Below are positions 6,296-55,545 of a stretch of 64,000 bases of DNA, one piece after another; position 1 is the first letter of the stretch, and each line of letters begins with the position of its first letter. Below the pieces are notes generated by a model, which was not told the origin of the DNA, made no database searches, and worked only from the letters and a program-made list of their open reading frames with translations. The stretch comes from an uncultured Alphaproteobacteria bacterium. GTDB lineage: Bacteria; Pseudomonadota; Alphaproteobacteria; Acetobacterales; Acetobacteraceae. Both the position numbers and the translations under genes were made by a program. The stretch is from positions 2,829,101-2,893,100 of the forward strand of contig OY968826.1 of NCBI GenBank assembly GCA_963696195.1, given 5' to 3'.

Positions 6296-6309
6296 CAGGC
6301 TGCGGAAAT

Positions 6310-6633
6310 TCACCACCGTTTGGCGGTGAAAGAGCTTTCGTCTCCGTTGTCAAAGCGGATTTCACCGACGATGGTGCGGTTTTTTTCGAGTTCGGCATCA
6401 CCGTCTCCGGCGACCTCTTCCATTTCGTCTGACCCGTGGAATTTGAACCGGATACTGGTTTTGCCATACTCGCATTGCAGGCCGATCTGGACGGCGCCGA
6501 ATGCCATTTGGCCACCGGCATCGTCGATTTGTATGTAGGCTGGGCCTAGCATATCGATGTACTCGGTATCCCAGCTCTCCATGCTGATGATCCGCCACTT
6601 GCCAAGAAGGAATTTGCCGCTGAAGGTTGTCAT
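6310..6633 (-). CDS. 107-aa conserved hypothetical passenger protein inside the IS5-family element
   Basis: ATG overlaps transposase TGA (ATGA 6633-6630); stop lies inside the terminal repeat; motif GKWRIISMESWD as recalled from ORFs that follow this transposase type. Confidence 0.65.
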   Translation of the reverse strand: MTTFSGKFLLGKWRIISMESWDTEYIDMLGPAYIQIDDAGGQMAFGAVQIGLQCEYGKTSIRFKFHGSDEMEEVAGDGDAELEKNRTIVGEIRFDNGDESSFTAKRW

Positions 6634-7290
6634 GCCGCGGCGGCGACCAACTTGGGCAGCCGGACCAAGTTGCATGCGGCGACTGTGAGGGTCACCATCC
6701 AGCCAACCCGTTTGAGGCCCCGATGGCGAGTTTTGCGCAAGCCAGCCGCGGCTTTGATCCAGCCGAAGGGCTCCTCGATGCGCTTGCGCTGCCGCTGGCT
6801 GATGGCATAGCCCGGATGACGGGTGGTCCGCGCATCGATAGCGGAGCGCCGGCCGGTGGTATTTTGCGCGACATGCGGAGTTACGCCGCGGGCGCGTAGC
6901 CGGGCCACATGCTCGGCGGTATCATAGGCTTTGTCGGCGCCCAGACTACATCGCCGGCCTCGCGGTTTGGCCGCGATCATATCCTCCGCTGCCTCGCGTT
7001 CCGCCCTGCCGGTTGCATGCGTGGTGCGGGCATCGACGATCAGGCCATGGCGGTTCTCAATGAGCAGATGCCCCATATAGCAAAGTCGTGCCGGCTGGCC
7101 TTTGGATTTGCGATATAGCCGGGCGTCCGGGCCGGTGGTCGAGGCATGGGTATCGTTGCTACGCGTCTCGCCATGAAAATTGCGCTCCGCGTTGCGCCCG
7201 GGTCCCGTCGGCGGCTCATCCGCGCCGTTCTTGCGCCGAAAACTCTTCATCGAGGCCCCGGCATCGATCAGCGTACCGTCAACCACCAAG
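6630..7290 (-). pseudogene. IS5-family DDE transposase, C-terminal two-thirds (N-terminus missing)
   Basis: VDGTLIDAGASMKSF, RSNDTHASTT-PDARLYRK, LGADKAYD, SQRQRKRIEEPFGWIK. Confidence 0.85.
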
Positions 7291-7753
7291 TGCACGGGCC
7301 TTTTGCGGCCCCGCATCATTTTCTTCAGCAGAGTTATGAAAAGTTCGGCCGTGAGGCCACCCTGATAAGTGCAATACCAGAAGGCGCCACGATCATTGAC
7401 CGCGGATGCAGCACTGACTGATTGGCGTTGACCTAGCCGCTCAACGACCTCGCGTCCACAGACCGAAATCCAAACCGTATTGGCGTGGATCTGCCGTTAA
7501 CCCAACGAAAAACCTGCTGCTCCTGCTTCGGCGTCAAGCTGCGCGGGCGCCCAGGCAACGGCTTTGCTTGCAGCGCCCTTAACCCAACGCCCGGCTGAGA
7601 GGCCGCCTTGATCCATCTGTAGATTGCAGTGCGACAGAAGCCGTACGAAGCGATAACCACAGATGGAGACTCACCATCTCGTACCCGCTCAACCGCCATT
7701 AAACGGATGACCTCCAACGTATGATGATCAAGACTTCGTCCGTCGCGCTTCAT
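7280..7753 (-). pseudogene. IS630-family transposase, frameshifted and internally deleted
   Basis: HTH part MKRDGRSLDHHTLEVIRLMAVERVR; frameshift at NGR/DPRQYGLDFGLWTR; jump to ERLGQRQSVSAASAVN..ELFITLLKKMMRGRKRPVHLVVDG. Confidence 0.82.
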
Positions 7754-7821
7754 GTGAAAACATACCAAATCAAGCCAACAAAAACCACAAAGATGTGGCC
7801 TTATTTACCAGCCTGTGAGTA

Positions 7822-7855: not shown

Positions 7856-8869
7856 TCACCCGCGCGTGAGATCGACTGTGGCGGCGAAGCCGGATTCGGT
7901 GCCGATGGCCAGGTGGGAGCCGGATGGGTTCCAGGTTAGGGCGGTGATGGCGCCGCGGCCTGGGCCGCAGACGGGGAGGACTTGTTCTTTATTGATGTCG
8001 AGGATGAGGACGAGGCCGGTGTCGAAACCGGCGGCGATGACGTCGTGTTCCGGGTGGCAGGCGACGCGTTTGACGATGCCGTCTCCGGGTCCGAGTTCCA
8101 GCGGGGCTTTGCCCATGGGGCCGCCGCCGAAGAAGGGCCATAGCACGGTGGATTCCGCTCCGCCGGTGGCGAGCCAGCGGCCGGAGTGGGTAAAGCCGAA
8201 GGATTCAGTTTTTGCGGGGTATCCGGCCATGCGCATATGTTTGCCTTCCGGCAGGGTCCAGCCGTGCAGGGCGTTTTCCTGCATGGAGGTAACGAGTGCG
8301 TCCCCCTGCGGGTGGATGGCGATGCCGGTATGGCTACCTTTCCATTCCAGGAAGCGGGGCGTGGCCGAGGCGGTGAACCACAGCGAGGCGCCGTTATAAT
8401 GCGATGCGGCGATGCGTTTGCCTTTGGTATCAAAAGCGATGCCGGTGACGGTGGACGGGTGGGGCAGGGCGCGGATGGTCTCGCCTTTGCCGTTGAACAA
8501 ATGCAGGTTTTTGCCCACGGCGGCGGCGAGCAGCGGGGTTTTCCCGGCGTAGCTGGCCACGTGCTCCACCCATTTGGAGCCGAAGCGGGCGATTTCGGTG
8601 ACGTTGCCGTCCACGCCGATGCTTAAGAATTTGCCGTCATCGCCGCCGGTGATGAAGCCGGGGGCTACCGGGTGCCGCGCCAGGGAGAGCACGGCGCCGT
8701 TATGCGCGGCGATGCTGGTCCAGCCCAAAACATTTTGCAGGCGCAGGGTGCCATCCCCGAGCGCAAAGGCGGCGTGGGTGCCAGTGGCGTCGAAACAGGC
8801 GGCGATGGCATGGGCGCCGAGTTCAGCGGTGTTGCCGCGGGCTTTGATAAGCTGGTCGAGATCTGACAT
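7856..8869 (-). CDS. WD40/beta-propeller repeat protein
   Basis: Repeated blades (FITGGDDG, WLATGGAE, VIAAGFDTG, LTWNPSGSHLAIG). Confidence 0.85.
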   Translation of the reverse strand: MSDLDQLIKARGNTAELGAHAIAACFDATGTHAAFALGDGTLRLQNVLGWTSIAAHNGAVLSLARHPVAPGFITGGDDGKFLSIGVDGNVTEIARFGSKWVEHVASYAGKTPLLAAAVGKNLHLFNGKGETIRALPHPSTVTGIAFDTKGKRIAASHYNGASLWFTASATPRFLEWKGSHTGIAIHPQGDALVTSMQENALHGWTLPEGKHMRMAGYPAKTESFGFTHSGRWLATGGAESTVLWPFFGGGPMGKAPLELGPGDGIVKRVACHPEHDVIAAGFDTGLVLILDINKEQVLPVCGPGRGAITALTWNPSGSHLAIGTESGFAATVDLTRG

Positions 8870-9003: not shown

Positions 9004-9017
9004 TTGAGCTAGATCAA
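9004..9017. promoter_or_regulatory. FNR/FixK-like box
   Basis: TTGAG-CTAG-ATCAA, one mismatch to TTGAT-N4-ATCAA, 55 bp upstream of the ATG at 9073. Confidence 0.5.
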
Positions 9018-9072
9018 GGTAGCGGATTTTTCTGGCTGCCAGAAATGCGCTTGTTATCAGCAGGAGTGCGCA

Positions 9073-10437
9073 ATGAAGCGGAATAAATTTAACTGGGCAG
9101 GCGCCGCTGGCGCAGCGGCCGGATTGGTGGCGATGACGGCGATGCCTCATACGGCCCAGGCGATTCCTGCCTTCGCGGCTCAAACGGGTATGCCTTGTTC
9201 GGCTTGTCACATTGGTTTCCCTCAGCTTACCCCCTTTGGCCGCGCGTTTAAGCTTGATGGCTACGTCCAGGGCGGCACTTTCCCCGATGTGAAGAATTTC
9301 GCCGCCATGGTGGAAGGTGGCTTCACCCAGTTGCACGATAAGGTGCCGGGCGGCATGGCGCCTGACTTTCCCAGCAACAATGCTTGGTCGATCCAGCAGA
9401 CCAGTCTGTTCTATGGCGGTGCGCTTGATGGCAACATCGGCCTGGGCGGCTTTGTCCAAGGCACGTATGATGGTGTCGCGCACCAGTTCCACTGGGATAA
9501 CCTCGATATCCGTCTGGCGCAGATGACCACTGTCGCCAACAAGCGGCTGGTTTATGGTTTTACCTTCAACAATGCGCCGGGCCTGACGGATTTGTGGAAC
9601 ACACTGCCTGCCTGGGGTTATCCTTTTGTGCCGCCGGCGCTGGCGGTTGGGCCAACGGCCGGCATCCAGATCAGCGCGCTGGCGCAGGCCGTAGCGGGCG
9701 TGGGCGGGTATACCTCGCTTAACGTAACGCCGAGTGATTTGCTGTATACCGAAGTTGACCTCTACAAATCCGTGCCAAACCACACCGCCTATGCGCTTGG
9801 CGCTGGACCAGAAGTGCCGATCTCCGGGCCGATCCCCTATTGGCGCGTGGCGGTGCAGCACAGCACGTGGAAGCAATCCATTGAGCTTGGCACCTCCGGG
9901 ATGGTGGATCACCCCTATCCGGCCGGCTTCACCCACGGGCCGACGGATACCCTAACGGATCTCGGCGTGGACGCGCAGTACCAATACATTACGGTGAAGC
10001 AGGCCTTCTCCGTGCAGGCGTCTTATTTCCATGAGGCGCAGCATTGGGGTGCGAGCTATGCGCAGGGCATGACCGCGAATTTGAACGACTATCTGGATAT
10101 GGAGACGTTGACGGGCTCTTATTTGTGGCACCAGATGTTCGGCGTGACGGAATCCTTCAATGCCATCTCCGGCAATGGAGATTCGGGATTGTATGCGGCA
10201 AGCCCGGTTACCGGCAACGCCAACGGCAAGCCGAACACGGACAGCTACACCACCGAGTTGGATTACTATCCGTTCAATACCGACGGCCCGAAAATCTTCC
10301 CTTGGGCCAACGCGAAGTTCTTCGTGGAAAACACAATCTATCCCACATTCAATGGGTTAGCGCATAATTACGACGGCAACGGCCGCTCGGCGCAGGGGAA
10401 CGACGTGTGGTTTACGGGCATCTGGCTGGTCTTCTGA
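9073..10437 (+). CDS. Cyc2-like outer-membrane monoheme cytochrome c-porin fusion
   Basis: Signal peptide ending AQA, then IPAFAAQTGMP-CSACH-IGFPQLTPFGRAFKLDGY (Cyc2 N-terminal signature; CxxCH at 9196-9210), ~390-aa aromatic beta-strand-rich region, terminal Phe (GIWLVF). Confidence 0.85.
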   Translation: MKRNKFNWAGAAGAAAGLVAMTAMPHTAQAIPAFAAQTGMPCSACHIGFPQLTPFGRAFKLDGYVQGGTFPDVKNFAAMVEGGFTQLHDKVPGGMAPDFPSNNAWSIQQTSLFYGGALDGNIGLGGFVQGTYDGVAHQFHWDNLDIRLAQMTTVANKRLVYGFTFNNAPGLTDLWNTLPAWGYPFVPPALAVGPTAGIQISALAQAVAGVGGYTSLNVTPSDLLYTEVDLYKSVPNHTAYALGAGPEVPISGPIPYWRVAVQHSTWKQSIELGTSGMVDHPYPAGFTHGPTDTLTDLGVDAQYQYITVKQAFSVQASYFHEAQHWGASYAQGMTANLNDYLDMETLTGSYLWHQMFGVTESFNAISGNGDSGLYAASPVTGNANGKPNTDSYTTELDYYPFNTDGPKIFPWANAKFFVENTIYPTFNGLAHNYDGNGRSAQGNDVWFTGIWLVF

Positions 10438-10463: not shown

Positions 10464-10496
10464 AAAGGCGGCTGGGACATCCCAGCCGCCTTTTTG
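10464..10496 (+). terminator. Rho-independent terminator of the cyc2-like gene
   Basis: GGCGGCTGGG-ACAT-CCCAGCCGCC-TTTTT. Confidence 0.88.
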
Positions 10497-10708
10497 TAAT
10501 CAAATTATAATTGTCTTGAACTTGCAAGGCGGCCATGCAAAGCTTGACAATGGTTTTTGCAACGGCTCCAGTTGGACTGAGCTTCAAGGAAGAATTGCTT
10601 CTTCTTTGCGCACGCATAGGTTTCAGCCCGCCCCGCGCTTAAGGTTTTGGCTTGCCCGCGCCAATGGCGTGCGGGTGCGTTCATTAATCTATGGGGAAGA
10701 ATCAAATT

Positions 10709-12088
10709 ATGTTGGATAAAGCTGGTGCCGCCGTTAACTGGCAGAGCATCGATAATGCACATCATTTACACCCGTTCACGGACCATAAGGCGCTGCATGC
10801 CGGTCACGTGCGGGTTATCACCAGGGCAGACGGGGTGTTTCTGCATGACTCAGAGGGTAATCGCATTCTGGACGGCATGGCTGGGCTTTGGTGCGTGAAC
10901 GCAGGTTATAGCCGGCCCGAGCTGGTGGAAGCCGCGTCCACCCAGATGAACAAGCTGCCGTACTACAACACCTTCTTTAAAACCACGAACCCGCCGGCCG
11001 CCGCTTTGGCGGAGCGCCTGGCGAACATCGCGCCCGAGGGCGTCAACCACGTGTTTTTCGCCTGTTCCGGCTCGGAAGCCGTGGACACCGCCTTGCGCAC
11101 CGCGCGCGTGTACTGGCAAACCCTGGGCAAGCCGGAAAAGAAGATCATCATCGGCCGCGAATACGGCTACCACGGCTCCACCACGCTCGGCGCTTCCGCC
11201 GGCGGCATGGTGGACATGCACCGCCAGGCAGGCGACATGCCGAACTTCGTGCAGGTGCTACCGCCCTATTGGTACGGCTACGGCGGCCAGATGAGCCCGG
11301 CCGAATTTGGGCTTTATGCAGCCAAGCAGCTGGAAGACAAGATCAAGGAACTCGGGGCCGGCAACATCGCCGCCTTTATCGGCGAGCCGCTGCAAGGATC
11401 CGGCGGCGTTATCATTCCACCCGAAACCTACTGGCCCGAGATCAACCGCATCTGCAAGGAAAACAACATCCTGCTGATCGCCGATGAAGTGATCTGCGGT
11501 TTTGGCCGCACCGGCAAAATGTTCGGTTCTGATTATTTTGGTATTAAACCGGATATGATGACGGTCGCCAAGGGCCTCACGTCAGGCTACATTCCGCTCT
11601 CCGCGGTGCTGATCCACGACCGCGTGGCGGAGGTGCTGATTAACCAGACCGGCGAGTATTTTCACGGCTTCACCTATTCTGGGCATCCAGTTGCTTGCGC
11701 CGTGGCGCTAAAGAATCTCGATATCATCGAGAGCGAGGGACTGGTTGAGCGGGCCAATGTGGTGGGCCAAATGCTGCGTGAAAAACTGCAAGCGATGTTC
11801 GCTGACCATCCGCTCGTCGGCGAAGTGCGCGGCATCGGCATGATCGGCGGCATTGAGCTGGTTGCCGACAAGCGCACGCGCCGCTTCTTTGAGCCACGCG
11901 GCCGCGTCGGCCAGATCTGCCGCGACTTCTGTGTTGGCAACGGGCTGATCATGCGTGCCGTGCGCGACACCATGGTGTTCTCGCCACCGTTGATTATTTC
12001 GCACGATGAAATCGACACCATGGTCGCGCTGGCGAAGAAATCCATAGACCAGACCTATGAGAAAGTGAAGCACGAGGTGGCATCATGA
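10709..12088 (+). CDS. spuC: Class III omega-aminotransferase (putrescine-pyruvate transaminase, SpuC-like)
   Basis: HHLHPFTD, LDGMAGLWCVN, GYHGST, ADEVICGFGRTG, VAKGLTSGY; RBS favours ATG 10709 over 10691. Confidence 0.85.
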   Translation: MLDKAGAAVNWQSIDNAHHLHPFTDHKALHAGHVRVITRADGVFLHDSEGNRILDGMAGLWCVNAGYSRPELVEAASTQMNKLPYYNTFFKTTNPPAAALAERLANIAPEGVNHVFFACSGSEAVDTALRTARVYWQTLGKPEKKIIIGREYGYHGSTTLGASAGGMVDMHRQAGDMPNFVQVLPPYWYGYGGQMSPAEFGLYAAKQLEDKIKELGAGNIAAFIGEPLQGSGGVIIPPETYWPEINRICKENNILLIADEVICGFGRTGKMFGSDYFGIKPDMMTVAKGLTSGYIPLSAVLIHDRVAEVLINQTGEYFHGFTYSGHPVACAVALKNLDIIESEGLVERANVVGQMLREKLQAMFADHPLVGEVRGIGMIGGIELVADKRTRRFFEPRGRVGQICRDFCVGNGLIMRAVRDTMVFSPPLIISHDEIDTMVALAKKSIDQTYEKVKHEVAS

Positions 12089-13455
12089 ATATGCTGCCGC
12101 TCGCCGCCGACCGCGATGCCAGACTGGCGCTGATGGCGCAGGCTGAATATATCGAGGCCTTCATCATCGATGTGAATGGCGTGCCGCGCGGCAAATGGAT
12201 GCAGCCGGACAAGGCAAAATCCTTGCTCGGCGCCGGCGTCGCCATGCCGCGCTCGGCTTTTCTGCTGGACATCTGGGGCCGCGACGTGGTCGAGGGCGGA
12301 ATCGCGCTCGACACCGGCGACCCCGACGGGTTGTGTACCGCCGTGCCGCATTCCATCACCCGCATGAGCTGGGCTGAAGGCACGGCGTGCCAAGCCATGC
12401 TGACCATGCTTGAGGCTGACGGCAGCCATTTCTTCCTCGACCCGCGCGGTGTGCTGGCGCGCGTGCTGGAGCGCTACACCGCCGCCGGCCTTAGCCCGGC
12501 ACTTGGCGTGGAGTTGGAATTTTACCTGGTCGATGAAGGCCAGACCGGCGGCTTGAAAATTGCCCCGCGCGGCGCGGATTACTCCGGCTGGCGCGGCTGG
12601 CATATCGATGCGGTGGGTCTGGGCGAAATCCATGACTACCAGGTGATTCTGCGCGAAATGATGTCGATCGCAAAATCGCAGGGAATCACGCTGGAAACAC
12701 TGATCAGCGAGAACGGGCCGGGGCAGTTCGAGGTGACGCTGAAATACTCGACCGACGCATTGCGCGTCGCCGATTCCGCGACGCTGTTCAAGCGCACCAT
12801 TAAGCAAGTGGCGCGCAAGCATGGGCTCACCGCCACCTTCATGGCCAAGCCTTATGGGCAATGGGCGGGCAGCGGCATGCATGTGCATATGTCCGTGCTG
12901 GACACCAAGGGCAACAATATTTTTGTCGGCACGCCCGAACGCGCCGCACCCGTGCTGTACAACGCGCTGGGTGGAATCATCCAGGCCATGCCTGATACGA
13001 TGCTCACCCTGGCACCGCACGCCAACTCCTACCGCCGTTTTGCCCCTGGTGTGCATGCGCCCACCTTTGGTGACTGGGGGCATGACAACCGTTTGGCCGC
13101 GGTGCGCGTCATCACCGCCGACCCGCCGGCCTCGCGCATCGAACACCGCGTTGCCGGGGCGGACTGCAACCCATATCTTGCCTTCGCCTCGCTGCTCGGC
13201 TCGGCACTGCACGGCATTGAAACCAAAGCCGGCCCCGGCCCGGAAACATTTGGCGACAGACGCACTGGCCAAGCCCCGCCGCTGCCCATCGCCTGGTCCA
13301 CCGCGCTCGATAAATTTGCTGACTCCGCCTACATTAAAAGCATTTTTGGCGCTGATTTCCAGCGGCTTTTCACAGCCTGTAAACGTCAGGAAATCAACGA
13401 AATGCGGCGGCGAATCTCGGATGTGGAGTATGACGCTTATCTGGAGACAGCATGA
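12085..13455 (+). CDS. Glutamine synthetase-like gamma-glutamyl-polyamine ligase (PuuA/SpuB-like)
   Basis: DVNGVPRGKW, ELEFYL, ENGPGQFE, FMAKPY, GSGMHVH, NSYRRF, RIEHRVAGADCNPY. Confidence 0.85.
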   Translation: MNMLPLAADRDARLALMAQAEYIEAFIIDVNGVPRGKWMQPDKAKSLLGAGVAMPRSAFLLDIWGRDVVEGGIALDTGDPDGLCTAVPHSITRMSWAEGTACQAMLTMLEADGSHFFLDPRGVLARVLERYTAAGLSPALGVELEFYLVDEGQTGGLKIAPRGADYSGWRGWHIDAVGLGEIHDYQVILREMMSIAKSQGITLETLISENGPGQFEVTLKYSTDALRVADSATLFKRTIKQVARKHGLTATFMAKPYGQWAGSGMHVHMSVLDTKGNNIFVGTPERAAPVLYNALGGIIQAMPDTMLTLAPHANSYRRFAPGVHAPTFGDWGHDNRLAAVRVITADPPASRIEHRVAGADCNPYLAFASLLGSALHGIETKAGPGPETFGDRRTGQAPPLPIAWSTALDKFADSAYIKSIFGADFQRLFTACKRQEINEMRRRISDVEYDAYLETA

Positions 13456-14339
13456 GGAACGTTACCATCGCCGCAACGCAAATGGCATGCGGACCAGATG
13501 CCGCGGCAAACATCGCCAGGGTGGAAAAACTGGTCCGCGCGGCGGCGGCGCAGGGTGCGCAGATCATTCTGATACAAGAACTTTTTGAGAGCCTGTATTT
13601 CTGCCAGGACCAGGTTCACGCCTTCTTCGGCCTGGCCAAACCGCTGGCGGAAAACGCCGCGGTCAAGCACTTCGCTCCCATTGCGAAGGAACTCGGTGTT
13701 GTGCTGCCGATCTCGGTGTTCGAGCGCGCCGGGCAGAGCTTTTTCAACACCATCGTGATTCTTGATGCTGATGGCACCAACCTCGGCTACTACCGAAAAT
13801 CACACATCCCCGACGGCCCCGGTTATTCCGAGAAGTTTTACTTCTCCCCCGGCGATACCGGCTTCAAAGTGTGGGACACTAAATACGCGCGCATCGGTGT
13901 TGGCATCTGCTGGGACCAATGGTTTCCCGAAACCGCGCGCGCCATGGCCCTGATGGGCGCGGAACTGCTGTTCTTCCCCACCGCCATCGGCTCCGAACCG
14001 CAGGACCCCACGCTGGACTCCAGCGGTCATTGGCAGCGCACCATGCAAGGCCACGCCGCCGCCAACCTCATGCCGCTCGTTGCCTCCAACCGTATCGGCA
14101 CGGAACCAGGCGTGCACGGCACCTCCATCACCTTCTACGGCTCCTCCTTCATCGCCGATAATACGGGCGCCAAAATCGCCGAGGCCAACCGGACGGATGA
14201 GGCCATCCTCACCGCCACCTTCGACCTCGATGCACTGGCCCATATCCGCGCCTCTTGGGGCGTATTCCGAGACCGCCGCCCGGAACTCTACACCCCGCTG
14301 CTCACCCTGGACGGCAAACACGCTAGCAGGGCGCGATAA
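13452..14339 (+). CDS. aguB: N-carbamoylputrescine amidase
   Basis: Nitrilase E-K-C triad: QELF, YRKSHIPDGPGYSEKFYF, GICWDQWFPE. Confidence 0.93.
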   Translation: MRNVTIAATQMACGPDAAANIARVEKLVRAAAAQGAQIILIQELFESLYFCQDQVHAFFGLAKPLAENAAVKHFAPIAKELGVVLPISVFERAGQSFFNTIVILDADGTNLGYYRKSHIPDGPGYSEKFYFSPGDTGFKVWDTKYARIGVGICWDQWFPETARAMALMGAELLFFPTAIGSEPQDPTLDSSGHWQRTMQGHAAANLMPLVASNRIGTEPGVHGTSITFYGSSFIADNTGAKIAEANRTDEAILTATFDLDALAHIRASWGVFRDRRPELYTPLLTLDGKHASRAR

Positions 14340-54931: not shown

Positions 54932-55545
54932 TGGATAAATTCACCCTCCTCACCGCCACGGTGGCGCCATTGAATTTGGCGAATGTGGATACGGATAAAA
55001 TTATTCCGGCGCGGTTCTTGAAAACCATCAAGCGCAGCGGGCTGGGCGTGAGCTTGTTTTCGGACCTGCGGTATAATGCGGATGGTTCAGAGAAGCCGGA
55101 GTTTGTGCTGAATCAGCCGAAATATCGTAAGGCGGAAATTCTGGTGGCGGGCGAGAATTTTGGTTGTGGCTCCTCGCGCGAGCATGCGCCCTGGGCGCTG
55201 CGGGATTTTGGCATCCGTTGCGTGATCGCGCCGAGCTTTGCCGATATTTTCCACGGTAATTGCTTAAAGAATGGCATTTTGCCGATTGTGCTGCCTGCGG
55301 CGGTTTGCGAGCAGTTGATGGAAGATGCGGCGAAGGGCACCAATGCGCGGCTAACCATTGATCTGGAAAAGCAGGTTGTGGTGCGGCCAGATGGCGAGGA
55401 AATTCGTTTTGAAGTCGATGCTTTTAGAAAGCATTGCCTGCTCAACGGGCTGGACGATATTGGCCTGACGCTGGAACATGCCGCCGCGATTGATGCCTAT
55501 GAAGCCAAAACCCCAAGCTGGAAGCCGGCGATTAACGGAGTCTGA
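54931..55545 (+). CDS. leuD: 3-isopropylmalate dehydratase small subunit
   Basis: [24 protein letters not shown]. Confidence 0.97.

Follow-up and report, generated by a model that had tools for sequence, protein, structure and literature searches.

The window, a stretch of 64,000 nucleotides, carries on its forward strand a cyc2-like gene with an intact frame of 454 codons, present in a single copy in its genome (Table 1). Its product, P0001, begins with MKRNKFNWAGAAGAAAGLVAMTAMPHTAQA, followed by IP; judged by eye, this is a signal peptide with a basic n-region (KRNK), a hydrophobic core and an AxA cleavage site, and the AxA-[ILV]P junction is kept across an alignment of 40 sequences. Past the signal the order is A30-I-P-A-F-A-A-Q-T38, G-M-P, C42-S-A-C-H46, I-G-F, P50-Q-L52 and then TPFGRAFKLDGY. 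There is exactly one CXXCH motif (C42-S-A-C-H46), to which a haem would be attached through C42, C45 and H46, and the chain ends in ...GIWLVF, with Phe as its final residue. An AlphaFold2 model of P0001 (pLDDT 83.8, pTM 0.81) has 16 strands over residues 76-453, and its top Foldseek matches are AlgE, OprP/OprO, and general and 16-strand porins, with E-values down to 1e-8; on this model, P0001 would reside in the outer membrane. Sequence and model together bear out what an earlier, sequence-only reading of the locus had described, namely a signal peptide, the motif, CXXCH and a barrel ending in Phe. That reading had also looked to AlphaFold for a barrel plus haem ligands: the 16-strand barrel is there, but no distal ligand stands out, as the 40-homologue alignment holds neither an invariant Met nor an invariant second His. 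Searches of P0001 against Pfam and NCBIfam assigned no family, and a PDB sequence search gave no meaningful match.

The gene had been described as monocistronic with its own terminator, and the details agree: the upstream gene is divergent, the cyc2-like gene has its own ribosome-binding site (the AGGAG is conserved in the orthologue loci L097, L100 and L101), and a hairpin at 10467-10490 is followed by TTTTT. The segment 10455-10505 folds at -35.4 kcal/mol (z = -9.17), and 0 of 200 shuffled sequences were equally stable. As read from the DNA, the gene is a one-gene transcription unit with its own terminator. The hairpin was overlooked by a consensus promoter and terminator scan, and its support comes from folding. 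Our search for RNA sequencing runs carrying the gene found none; the runs found were DNA only (sediment and soil study).

Table 1. Features of the cyc2-like gene and its surroundings, in window positions.
Feature	Position	Strand	Description and basis
cyc2-like gene, P0001	9073..10437	+	454-aa fused monohaem cytochrome c / 16-strand outer-membrane porin (predicted)
Signal peptide, residues 1-30	9073..9162	+	predicted cleavage between AQA and IP; by-eye sequence features
Cyc2 signature, A30-x-P-x-F-A-(A for R)-Q-T38 / C42-S-A-C-H46 / P50-x-L52	9160..9228	+	alignment; PMC8406198 motif
Beta-barrel, residues 76-454, C-terminal ...WLVF	9298..10434	+	AlphaFold2 secondary structure; Foldseek
Ribosome-binding site AGGAG	9062..9066	+	6 nt before ATG; read from sequence
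Intrinsic terminator GGCGGCTGGGA-CA-TCCCAGCCGCC plus TTTTT	10467..10495	+	sequence and fold
WD40 beta-propeller gene, divergent	7856..8869	-	Pfam WD40-type matches
FNR/FixK-type box TTGAGCTAGATCAA	9004..9017		one mismatch to TTGAT-N4-ATCAA; centre 62.5 nt before ATG

We judged family membership by the criteria of Keffer et al. 2021 (PMC8406198) and FeGenie, which include a length of at least 365 aa and a BLASTP E-value of at most 1e-5 to a characterised Cyc2. The reference Cyc2 was the protein encoded upstream of cyc1-cox-rus in the Acidithiobacillus rus operon of L085, a metagenome contig found with rusticyanin as the anchor (rusticyanin 99% identical). P0001 aligns to this rus-operon Cyc2 with 30% identity over 473 columns (E = 7e-44) and matches a second A. 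ferrooxidans homologue, P0319, with E = 6e-40. When the L085 Cyc2 was queried against the whole genome, the sole match was the cyc2-like gene (E = 2e-39), and all 414 of the 414 relatives that we fetched matched both proteins. P0001 has the length (454 aa) and, by eye, the signal peptide of the family, together with a single N-terminal CXXCH. Its A30-I-P-A-F-A-A-Q-T38 fits six of the seven specified positions of AXPXFAR[Q/K][T/Y]; the change of R to A in the FAR motif is common to the whole Acidocella/Acidiphilium clade, and distant relatives have FARQT. The PXL element is P50-Q-L52, with its proline four residues after H46, and the spacing from motif to CXXCH equals that in the rus-operon Cyc2, ALPSFARQTGWSCAACHTSYPQL. 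In the alignment of 40 homologues, the columns A30, P32, T38, C42, C45, H46 and L52 never vary, and at least 90% of the sequences have P50. The barrel is predicted to have the expected 16 strands, and the Foldseek matches include OprP (2o4v) and OprO (4rjw), the structural templates named by PMC8406198. P0001 is almost certainly a member of the Cyc2 family, the fused cytochrome-porin type to which it had first been assigned.

With more than 1,100 homologues, 2,744 representatives at 50% identity and a dN/dS of 0.09-0.10 against close orthologues (dS 0.8-1.1), the gene is not a chance open reading frame, and the ratio indicates that it is under purifying selection. In our tree, P0001 lies in an Acetobacteraceae-only clade (SH-aLRT 99) that shares one large, well-supported group with the Acidithiobacillus Cyc2. 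This places P0001 provisionally in Cluster 2 of the literature, an assignment that the earlier reading had left to a tree and that draws here on the level of identity and on a tree whose cluster references were those of Cluster 2. Because P0001 is 30% identical to the Acidithiobacillus protein, as against published between-cluster identities of 16-23%, it is nearer to Cluster 2.

P0001 shares with A. ferrooxidans-type Cyc2 the signal peptide, one CXXCH after AxPxFA-QT at identical spacing, PQLTP-GR-FKL after the CXXCH, a barrel of about 400 residues and an aromatic C-terminus. It is no orthologue of that protein, however, and its clade is separate. It differs further in that the R of the FAR motif is an A, its gene is not part of a rus operon (cyc1, cox genes, rusticyanin) and its host is a heterotroph. 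Cluster 1 Cyc2 (Mariprofundus PV-1, Ghiorsea TAG-1, Gallionellaceae) is alike by description, a fused cytochrome-porin with the consensus motif (PMC8406198), but is set apart in the literature by between-cluster identities of 16-23%. The MtrAB, MtoAB and PioAB systems also use a haem-containing barrel to move electrons across the outer membrane; these consist of two proteins, with a decahaem cytochrome inside a 26-strand barrel, whereas P0001 would be a single polypeptide that binds one haem and forms 16 strands.

The sequence-only reading overstated the novelty of such a gene in this family. Cyc2-like genes in Acidocella were already published in 2021 and 2023: in Acidocella MAG 20 (PMC8357290) and in Acidocella MX-AZ03, Acidibrevibacterium and others (PMC10715153), and a Cyc2 network includes Acidiphilium, Acidisphaera and Acidocella (PMC10654088). 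P0001 is an expected member of a described family and, since the genome holds only one homologue, most probably an orthologue of the Acidocella genes in these reports. According to the same papers (PMC8357290, PMC10715153, PMC10654088), the gene is "often adjacent" to one for a mono- or dihaem cytochrome, whereas it stands alone in every Acidocella orthologue locus that we examined. In the papers and the text search that we covered, there was no mention of a conserved FNR-type box or of presence in about 50% of the genus. The conserved FNR-type control site before the Acidocella cyc2-like gene is the new detail.

The host had been placed in the Acetobacteraceae, subject to a check of its taxonomy. 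It is an Acidocella, as the Acidocella orthologues of P0001 are 83-85% identical and syntenic. Around the gene lie one for a WD40 protein, remnants of IS elements, and aminotransferase, GS-like and CN-hydrolase (polyamine) genes, and no cytochrome or cupredoxin gene adjoins it. In the Acidocella orthologue loci, the gene lies in stable synteny between the WD40 gene and the polyamine genes. We considered the WD40 neighbour as a partner and rejected it: although also found in L097-L101, it lacks a signal peptide and does not occur beside the Acidiphilium genes. The link is conserved adjacency within Acidocella only. A foreign origin of the cyc2-like gene was likewise rejected, given a GC content of 58.5% against 61.3% for the genome, the stable synteny and a clade confined to its own family.

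Only about half of Acidocella species carry the gene. Fragmented or truncated copies occur in two genomes of the same genus (G192 and G168) and in three of the same family (G004, G017 and G083), IS remnants lie 1.3 kb upstream, and the partner cytochrome found beside cyc2 in Acidiphilium is not adjacent in Acidocella. These observations would fit a gene that is decaying or silent, the remnant of an ancestral iron-linked metabolism. We regard this as highly improbable for the copy studied here, whose frame is intact, whose dN/dS is low at the divergence given above, whose ribosome-binding site, regulatory box and terminator are all conserved, and in which every family-invariant residue is present.

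The regulatory box lies at promoter distance from the start codon. The orthologue loci at 85% identity, L097-L099, have exactly the same box; in A. aquatica (L100) the sequence is TTGAGATAGATCAA, and L101 has a degenerate form, CTGATGACCATCAG. Perfect boxes precede cyc2 in Acidiphilium (L001/L002) and in about 14 other, mostly alphaproteobacterial, loci. The genome contains 66 copies of TTGA-N6-TCAA where about 14 would be expected, including sites upstream of hemN, cydA, hcp, cyoA, a gene of the crp/fnr family and an FnrL-type gene. The last of these (G000:604207-604980) encodes the C-x2-C-x7-C...C cluster and the E--SR helix and has its own box. At the sequence level, the locus has what an FNR/FixK regulon calls for: a box at promoter distance, its conservation in orthologues and an FNR-type sensor in the genome. 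The conserved box suggests that the gene is on when oxygen is scarce, alongside hemN, cytochrome bd and hcp. We consider low-oxygen control reasonably probable, and FNR would act here as an activator; an FNR box is able to repress as well as to activate.

The absence of an adjacent cytochrome or rusticyanin had led the earlier reading to place the partners elsewhere, and the genome agrees. Small soluble monohaem cytochromes c are encoded away from the locus; one of them, a c2-like gene at G000:2025119-2025517, lies about 813 kb from the cyc2-like gene. In both Acidiphilium loci a c2-like gene is directly downstream of cyc2, and the homologue here is 51% identical. A TTGATTGAAATCAA box lies upstream of the c2-like gene in the Acidocella genome. 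More widely, a same-strand mono- or dihaem CXXCH ORF adjoins the cyc2 relative in roughly 40% of 80 loci. The c2-like cytochrome may be the partner of P0001, and we treat it as a candidate. The genes of an aa3 oxidase lie 267 kb from the cyc2-like gene; this oxidase, intact and with a CuA site, is of the low-affinity type and is the sole cytochrome-c oxidase in the genome, where cbb3 is absent. The quinol oxidases bd and bo3 have FNR boxes, and none was found near the aa3 genes.

Whole-genome tblastn searches with the L085 proteins gave no match to rusticyanin or AcoP and, for the dihaem Cyc1, a weak monohaem match only. No HiPIP and no RuBisCO was found in the genome, which suits the heterotroph that it had seemed to be. 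There is no rus-operon-type Fe(II) oxidation chain at the locus, and the neighbours of the cyc2-like gene are unrelated. In this genome the Rieske protein lacks every one of its four cluster ligands, and the cytochrome b gene appears frame-split at about G000:1229433-1229575, where the break may be real or a long-read error; a ligand-less Rieske protein has been described for acidophilic Acetobacteraceae (PMC10715153).

In acid mine waters and in the sediments of pit lakes, Acidocella and Acidiphilium drive the reduction of Fe(III), and we know of no protein that carries electrons outward in either genus. In the mechanism that we propose, the haem of P0001 would sit in or under the barrel and pass single electrons between dissolved iron at the surface and periplasmic monohaem cytochromes c, the candidate being the product of the unlinked c2-like gene; in micro-oxic or anoxic heterotrophic growth, electrons would exit via P0001 to Fe(III), whose reduction is the iron phenotype for which Acidocella is known. 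That P0001 is an iron/cytochrome-c conduit is likely, and is supported by the frequent position of Cyc2 relatives beside periplasmic c-type cytochromes; iron would be its substrate. On whether iron is oxidised or reduced, we lean to Fe(III) reduction at low oxygen. Outward flow to Fe(III) as the physiological direction in non-autotrophic Acidocella is a tentative proposal, to which we give slightly less than an even chance. The caution of the sequence-only reading that homology implies neither function nor direction still stands.

Several reports bear on an outward direction. A review (PMC8790237) describes micro-aerobic Fe(III) reduction in Acidocella aromatica and an oxygen-inducible iron reductase in Acidiphilium acidophilum, and implicates Cyc2 and Cyc2B of A. 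ferrooxidans in anaerobic Fe(III) reduction. In its favour, too, is that the FNR boxes are on the quinol oxidases and not near the sole cytochrome-c oxidase. Against it, the biochemically tested Cyc2s (A. ferrooxidans Cyc2, Leptospirillum Cyt572, Mariprofundus PV-1 and Ghiorsea TAG-1; PMC8406198, PMC13692758) were all assayed as Fe(II) oxidases and none as a reductase, and the family is common in bacteria not known to metabolise iron, among them Nitrosomonas, Methylomicrobium and Flavobacterium. With the Rieske protein ligand-less and cytochrome b apparently frame-split, the usual quinol-to-cytochrome-c route for outward flow is missing, and we identified no alternative route in the genome. 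A gene absent from about half of the Acidocella species cannot be the iron reductase of the genus as a whole.

Alternatively, P0001 may be an inward Fe(II) oxidase, with electrons passing via a periplasmic monohaem cytochrome c to the aa3 oxidase and bringing the heterotroph supplementary (lithoheterotrophic) energy or Fe(II) detoxification. Degli Esposti et al. 2023 read the acidophilic Acetobacteraceae genes in this way. Every characterised family member oxidises Fe(II) (PMC8406198, PMC13692758), the genome retains the intact aa3 oxidase with its CuA site and soluble cytochromes c, and many related loci have a Cyc1-like dihaem c4 cytochrome downstream. FNR-type control is compatible with micro-aerobic iron oxidation. 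Since the Rieske protein cannot bind its cluster, cytochrome c needs another source of electrons, an argument also made in PMC10715153; if the ligand-less Rieske, examined here in one genome, is genus-wide, however, a gene missing in half of the genus cannot be the general source. With no rusticyanin, AcoP, HiPIP or dihaem Cyc1, the genome offers no carrier of high potential by which Fe(II) could be oxidised at low pH. It also has no RuBisCO and no cbb3, and the oxidase genes with FNR boxes encode quinol oxidases, unable to accept electrons from cytochrome c. In the papers that we consulted, Acidocella is Fe(III)-reducing or putatively so, and none of them reports Fe(II) oxidation by the genus. 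We hold an inward oxidase to be rather improbable.

P0001 could also be a Cyc2-fold redox porin for a substrate other than iron (Mn, Cu, humic or quinone compounds, reactive oxygen or nitrogen species) or with a role in periplasmic redox balance; iron chemistry would then be confined to a few of the family's lineages. Thousands of members occur in groups that are not known for iron metabolism (nitrifiers, methanotrophs, Bacteroidota, Gemmatimonadota, Acidobacteriota and Verrucomicrobiota), and Keffer et al. (PMC8406198) consider function outside Cluster 1 uncertain and other functions possible. The accessory-like distribution in Acidocella, with the decayed copies in G192 and G168, and a neighbourhood of polyamine genes and a WD40 protein without an iron link would suit such a role. 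To our knowledge, no member of the family has ever been shown to use a substrate other than iron. The frequent tight pairing with periplasmic c-type cytochromes, a habitat of iron-rich acidic waters and sediments, and a nearest characterised relative (30% identity) that is an iron oxidase make a non-iron substrate unlikely.

In metagenomes, Cyc2 is taken as a marker gene of iron oxidation. Heterotrophic iron reducers have it too, which shows that the marker needs context before it is taken to mean "iron oxidiser". A more specific form of the outward proposal, which we find doubtful, is that the FNR-controlled cyc2 encodes the Fe(III) reductase, inducible and repressed by oxygen, that has long been sought in acidophilic heterotrophs, a Cyc2 run in reverse and fed past a ligand-less bc1. 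If so, the pairing would be of cyc2 and c2 genes in Acidiphilium, with the c2-like partner unlinked in Acidocella, and low-oxygen control would be general to alphaproteobacterial members of this Cyc2 branch. Since only about half of the genus has the gene, Acidocella strains with and without it already exist in nature for comparison. Together with the FNR-type box and the co-occurrence of a ligand-less Rieske protein, these strains make direction testable in the laboratory in cultured carriers, and the orthologue carriers include cultured Acidocella aquatica and strain KAb 2-4.

The cyc2-like open reading frame was recovered at the coordinates and with the motif that a sequence-only reading had described; it encodes 454 residues with a single CXXCH. 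Its product begins with a basic start, a hydrophobic core and a junction between AQA and IP, continues with A30-I-P-A-F-A-A-Q-T38, three residues, C42-S-A-C-H46, three residues, P50-Q-L52 and TPFGRAFKLDGY, and ends in ...GIWLVF. Under the published rules, a Cyc2 is at least 365 amino acids long, has a single haem site preceded by AXPXFAR[Q/K][T/Y] and followed by PXL at +4, and contains a 16-strand porin. The window protein conforms throughout apart from an A in place of the motif's R, a change common to the whole Acidocella/Acidiphilium clade.

Scans of the protein against Pfam and NCBIfam matched no model, and no solved structure matched it by sequence. The family is large: more than 1,100 homologues were scored, and at 50% identity it has 2,744 representatives. 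Among 40 aligned homologues, with identity down to 40%, residues A30, P32, T38, C42, C45, H46, L52, G56, F59 and K60 are invariant. An AlphaFold2 model computed from this 40-homologue alignment is confident (pLDDT 83.8, pTM 0.81), with short helices near the haem site and, beginning at residue 76, 16 strands that reach the C-terminus. The suspected barrel is thus predicted, and the Foldseek matches to the model are outer-membrane barrels only, among them OprP (2o4v) and OprO (4rjw), which the literature gives as Cyc2 templates (PMC8406198). As a prediction, the assignment of an outer-membrane monohaem cytochrome-porin is secure.

Using a rusticyanin sequence that agreed exactly with the PDB as an anchor, we fetched rus operons from metagenome contigs. 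One such locus (L085) has the gene order cyc2, cyc1, cupredoxin gene, coxB, coxA, coxC, rus, and its rusticyanin is 99% identical. The window protein aligns over its full length to the Cyc2 of this operon (P0294; N-terminal part ...ALPSFARQTGWSCAACHTSYPQLTPMGRMFKLLGF) at 30% identity across 473 columns (BLASTP, E 7e-44), which, with the motif, bears out the earlier call of a Cyc2-type protein. When P0294 was searched against the host genome, the only match was the cyc2-like gene (E 2e-39), and a profile search likewise gave a copy number of one.

All 414 fetched relatives match both the window protein and Acidithiobacillus Cyc2, and several score equally to the two; therefore, both proteins are members of a single continuous family. 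A maximum-likelihood tree was built from 81 sequences, without Cluster 1 or Cluster 3 references. In it, the window protein falls in a clade of Acidocella, Acidiphilium and related Acetobacteraceae sequences only (support 99), while the Acidithiobacillus/Acidiferrobacter proteins form a separate clade (support 99); a supported group of 67 sequences contains the two clades. A. ferrooxidans Cyc2 belongs to Cluster 2 (PMC7029218). Because 30% identity equals the published within-cluster values for that protein and exceeds the 16-23% found between clusters, we provisionally and informally place the window protein in Cluster 2.

The identification of the Acidocella gene is correct, yet it is not new, since earlier papers describe Cyc2-like genes from an Acidocella MAG (PMC8357290) and from Acidocella MX-AZ03 and other Acetobacteraceae (PMC10715153), and an Acidiphilium/Acidisphaera/Acidocella group is part of a sequence network centred on A. 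ferrooxidans Cyc2 (PMC10654088). What we add is modest: a conserved FNR-type box that recurs in Alphaproteobacteria, a stand-alone syntenic cyc2 in Acidocella as opposed to a cyc2-c2 pair in Acidiphilium, and a distribution of cyc2 that covers about half the genus and includes decayed copies. Together these make the direction of electron flow testable.

The host genome, one contig of 2.91 Mb, comes from a freshwater sediment metagenome. The closest named relatives of the window protein are those of Acidocella aquatica (83%) and Acidocella sp. KAb 2-4 (70%), with Acidocella sp. C78 and Acidiphilium spp. at 59-63%. The order WD40 (minus strand), cyc2 (plus strand), aminotransferase, glutamine-synthetase-like gene, CN hydrolase, agmatine deiminase is kept at the loci of the 85%, 83% and 68% orthologues, and cyc2 has a dN/dS of 0.09-0.10 at dS 0.8-1.1. 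Cyc2 is therefore long established at the locus, inherited vertically and maintained by selection; that it is a dead gene is very improbable. Within the genus, cyc2 is present in 33 of the 61 species genomes (19 of the 38 of high quality), and across the family a homologue occurs in 45 of 151 genomes. Decayed copies in two other Acidocella genomes show that loss is ongoing; judged by this distribution, cyc2 is an accessory gene that has been lost repeatedly. The polyamine gene set 3' of cyc2 (class-III aminotransferase, glutamine-synthetase-like enzyme, CN hydrolase) is syntenic across Acidocella and is extended in orthologue loci by agmatine deiminase and an amino-acid permease.

Coordinates of features in the window, the host genome (G000, contig C1) and two other Acidocella genomes (G192, G168)
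Feature	Sequence	Position	Strand	Remark
Two transposase remnants	window	6296-7819	-	
DDE_Tnp_1 fragment	window	6630-7319	-	transposase remnant
Winged-helix/HTH fragment	window	7433-7768	-	transposase remnant
FNR-type box	window	9004-9017		TTGAGCTAGATCAA
cyc2-like ORF	window	9073-10437	+	454 residues
Polyamine gene set	window	10691-14339 onward		
Second TTGA-N6-TCAA site	window	55018-55031		TTGAAAACCATCAA
66-codon ORF (examples)	G000	157000-157200, 284044-284244, 2910027-2910227		MHHASWTDRSMAKALPRISNNFWCRHCH...
Box of FnrL-type gene	G000:C1	604166		TTGATATGGATCAA
FnrL-type gene	G000:C1	604207-604980		
Second Crp/Fnr-family gene	G000:C1	1181865-1182626		
Rieske subunit of bc1	G000:C1	1228640-1229194		
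Cytochrome b gene	G000:C1	1229207-1230332		ORFs 1229207-1229575 and 1229433-1230332
c2-like cytochrome	G000	2025119-2025517		
Putative copper chaperone and monohaem c	G000:C1	2755490-2756283		
Decayed cyc2	G192:C2	140898-142232		split across three frames
Decayed cyc2	G168:C59	232503-232784		N-terminal 95 residues only

An AGGAG lies 6 nt 5' of the cyc2 ATG, and a GC-rich hairpin followed by TTTTT lies 30 nt 3' of the stop (-35.4 kcal/mol, z = -9.2; 0 of 200 shuffles equally stable). Because the upstream gene is divergent and cyc2 has this terminator of its own, it forms a one-gene unit, in agreement with the monocistronic gene described from sequence. Its surroundings comprise the WD40 protein, the two transposase remnants and the aminotransferase, glutamine-synthetase-like and CN-hydrolase genes; no cytochrome or cupredoxin gene adjoins it in the host locus. 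Of 80 related loci, approximately 40% have a same-strand mono- or dihaem CXXCH ORF adjoining the cyc2 homologue; in the two Acidiphilium loci this ORF encodes a c2-like monohaem cytochrome directly 3' of cyc2. The host homologue of this cytochrome (51% identity) lies approximately 813 kb from cyc2, so the expectation that partners must be elsewhere held.

Searches of the whole host genome found no rusticyanin, AcoP-type cupredoxin, dihaem Cyc1, HiPIP, RuBisCO or cbb3 oxidase. Its c-type cytochromes are cytochrome c1, a membrane-anchored monohaem c and three small monohaem c, along with a trihaem dehydrogenase subunit, and its oxidases are an aa3 with an intact CuA site, a bo3-type quinol oxidase and cytochrome bd. 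A putative copper-chaperone gene is followed at once by a small monohaem c gene that overlaps its end; by eye we take the chaperone to be PCuAC-type from its Met-rich ...GGYHLMCM motif.

An FNR-type box, one mismatch away from TTGAT-N4-ATCAA, stands 62.5 nt before the cyc2 ATG. The 85% orthologues share it exactly, the A. aquatica copy has one altered spacer base, and the 68% orthologue reads CTGATGACCATCAG, while the flanking sequence diverges. The looser form, TTGA-N6-TCAA, occurs 66 times in the host genome versus approximately 14 expected, mostly in intergenic sequence, with sites 5' of hemN, cydA, hcp, a crp/fnr-family gene, a cyoA-like gene and the c2-like cytochrome; another site lies elsewhere in the window. 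The host encodes an FnrL-type protein that has a central Cys in addition to an N-terminal C-x2-C-x7-C and whose recognition helix reads ETVSR (E--SR); an FNR box of its own lies upstream of the gene. A second Crp/Fnr-family gene is divergent from hcp, and the two share one perfect box. From these sites we infer that host cyc2 is under low-oxygen control, by activation or repression.

Among 84 loci, a perfect box precedes the cyc2 homologue in the two Acidiphilium loci and in approximately 14 others, mostly alphaproteobacterial, where chance would give far below one. Loci with perfect or near-perfect boxes (L001, L002, L005, L007, L009, L014, L016, L023, L047, L053, L059) come from Acidiphilium, other Alphaproteobacteria (Stellaceae, Rhizobiales, Rhodomicrobium) and one betaproteobacterium. 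This recurrence suggests that low-oxygen control may be widespread in this branch of Cyc2. A text search of the literature yielded no paper tying Cyc2 homologues to FNR through such boxes.

The case for iron as the substrate draws on the characterised iron oxidases among the homologues, on the periplasmic cytochromes that recur beside cyc2, on the habitat and on what is known of iron chemistry in the genus. We consider a non-iron role unlikely. For direction, we tentatively consider outward flow, in which the protein would pass electrons out and reduce Fe(III), a real possibility somewhat short of an even chance, because cyc2 carries the FNR-type box and because the host has no cytochrome-c oxidase other than an aa3 type of low affinity, which does not belong to the box set. 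Also in its favor are micro-aerobic Fe(III) reduction by Acidocella aromatica, an oxygen-inducible reductase in Acidiphilium acidophilum, and the implication of Cyc2 and Cyc2B in anaerobic Fe(III) reduction by A. ferrooxidans (all PMC8790237).

The bc1 complex bears on the opposite direction. Compared with the Paracoccus protein, all four 2Fe-2S ligands of the host Rieske subunit are replaced (C to N, H to G, C to S, H to D), so that it reads GLNTGAPCALEG...WLSPCDGSVYD where the canonical sequence is CTHLGC...CPCHGS. A ligand-less Rieske leaves the aa3 oxidase needing another cytochrome c donor, an argument for inward flow from Fe(II) that is also made in PMC10715153, and the Cyc2 proteins tested so far are all oxidases. 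We rate Fe(II) oxidation by the window protein as somewhat less likely than outward flow. The half of the genus without cyc2 counts against inward flow as a general explanation, and against outward flow as well. The host bc1 matches the "deranged bc1" of acidophilic Acetobacteraceae described by Degli Esposti et al. (PMC10715153). Its cytochrome b lacks one haem-ligand His (VYWLLFRD instead of VY-H--RG), and the gene is apparently in two frames, as overlapping ORFs; this break may reflect the true sequence or an error in long-read assembly.

The two transposase remnants, 1.3 kb 5' of cyc2, are absent from the orthologous Acidocella loci examined. Elsewhere, a near-identical 66-codon ORF occurs in 17 places of the host genome and probably marks a multi-copy insertion sequence.
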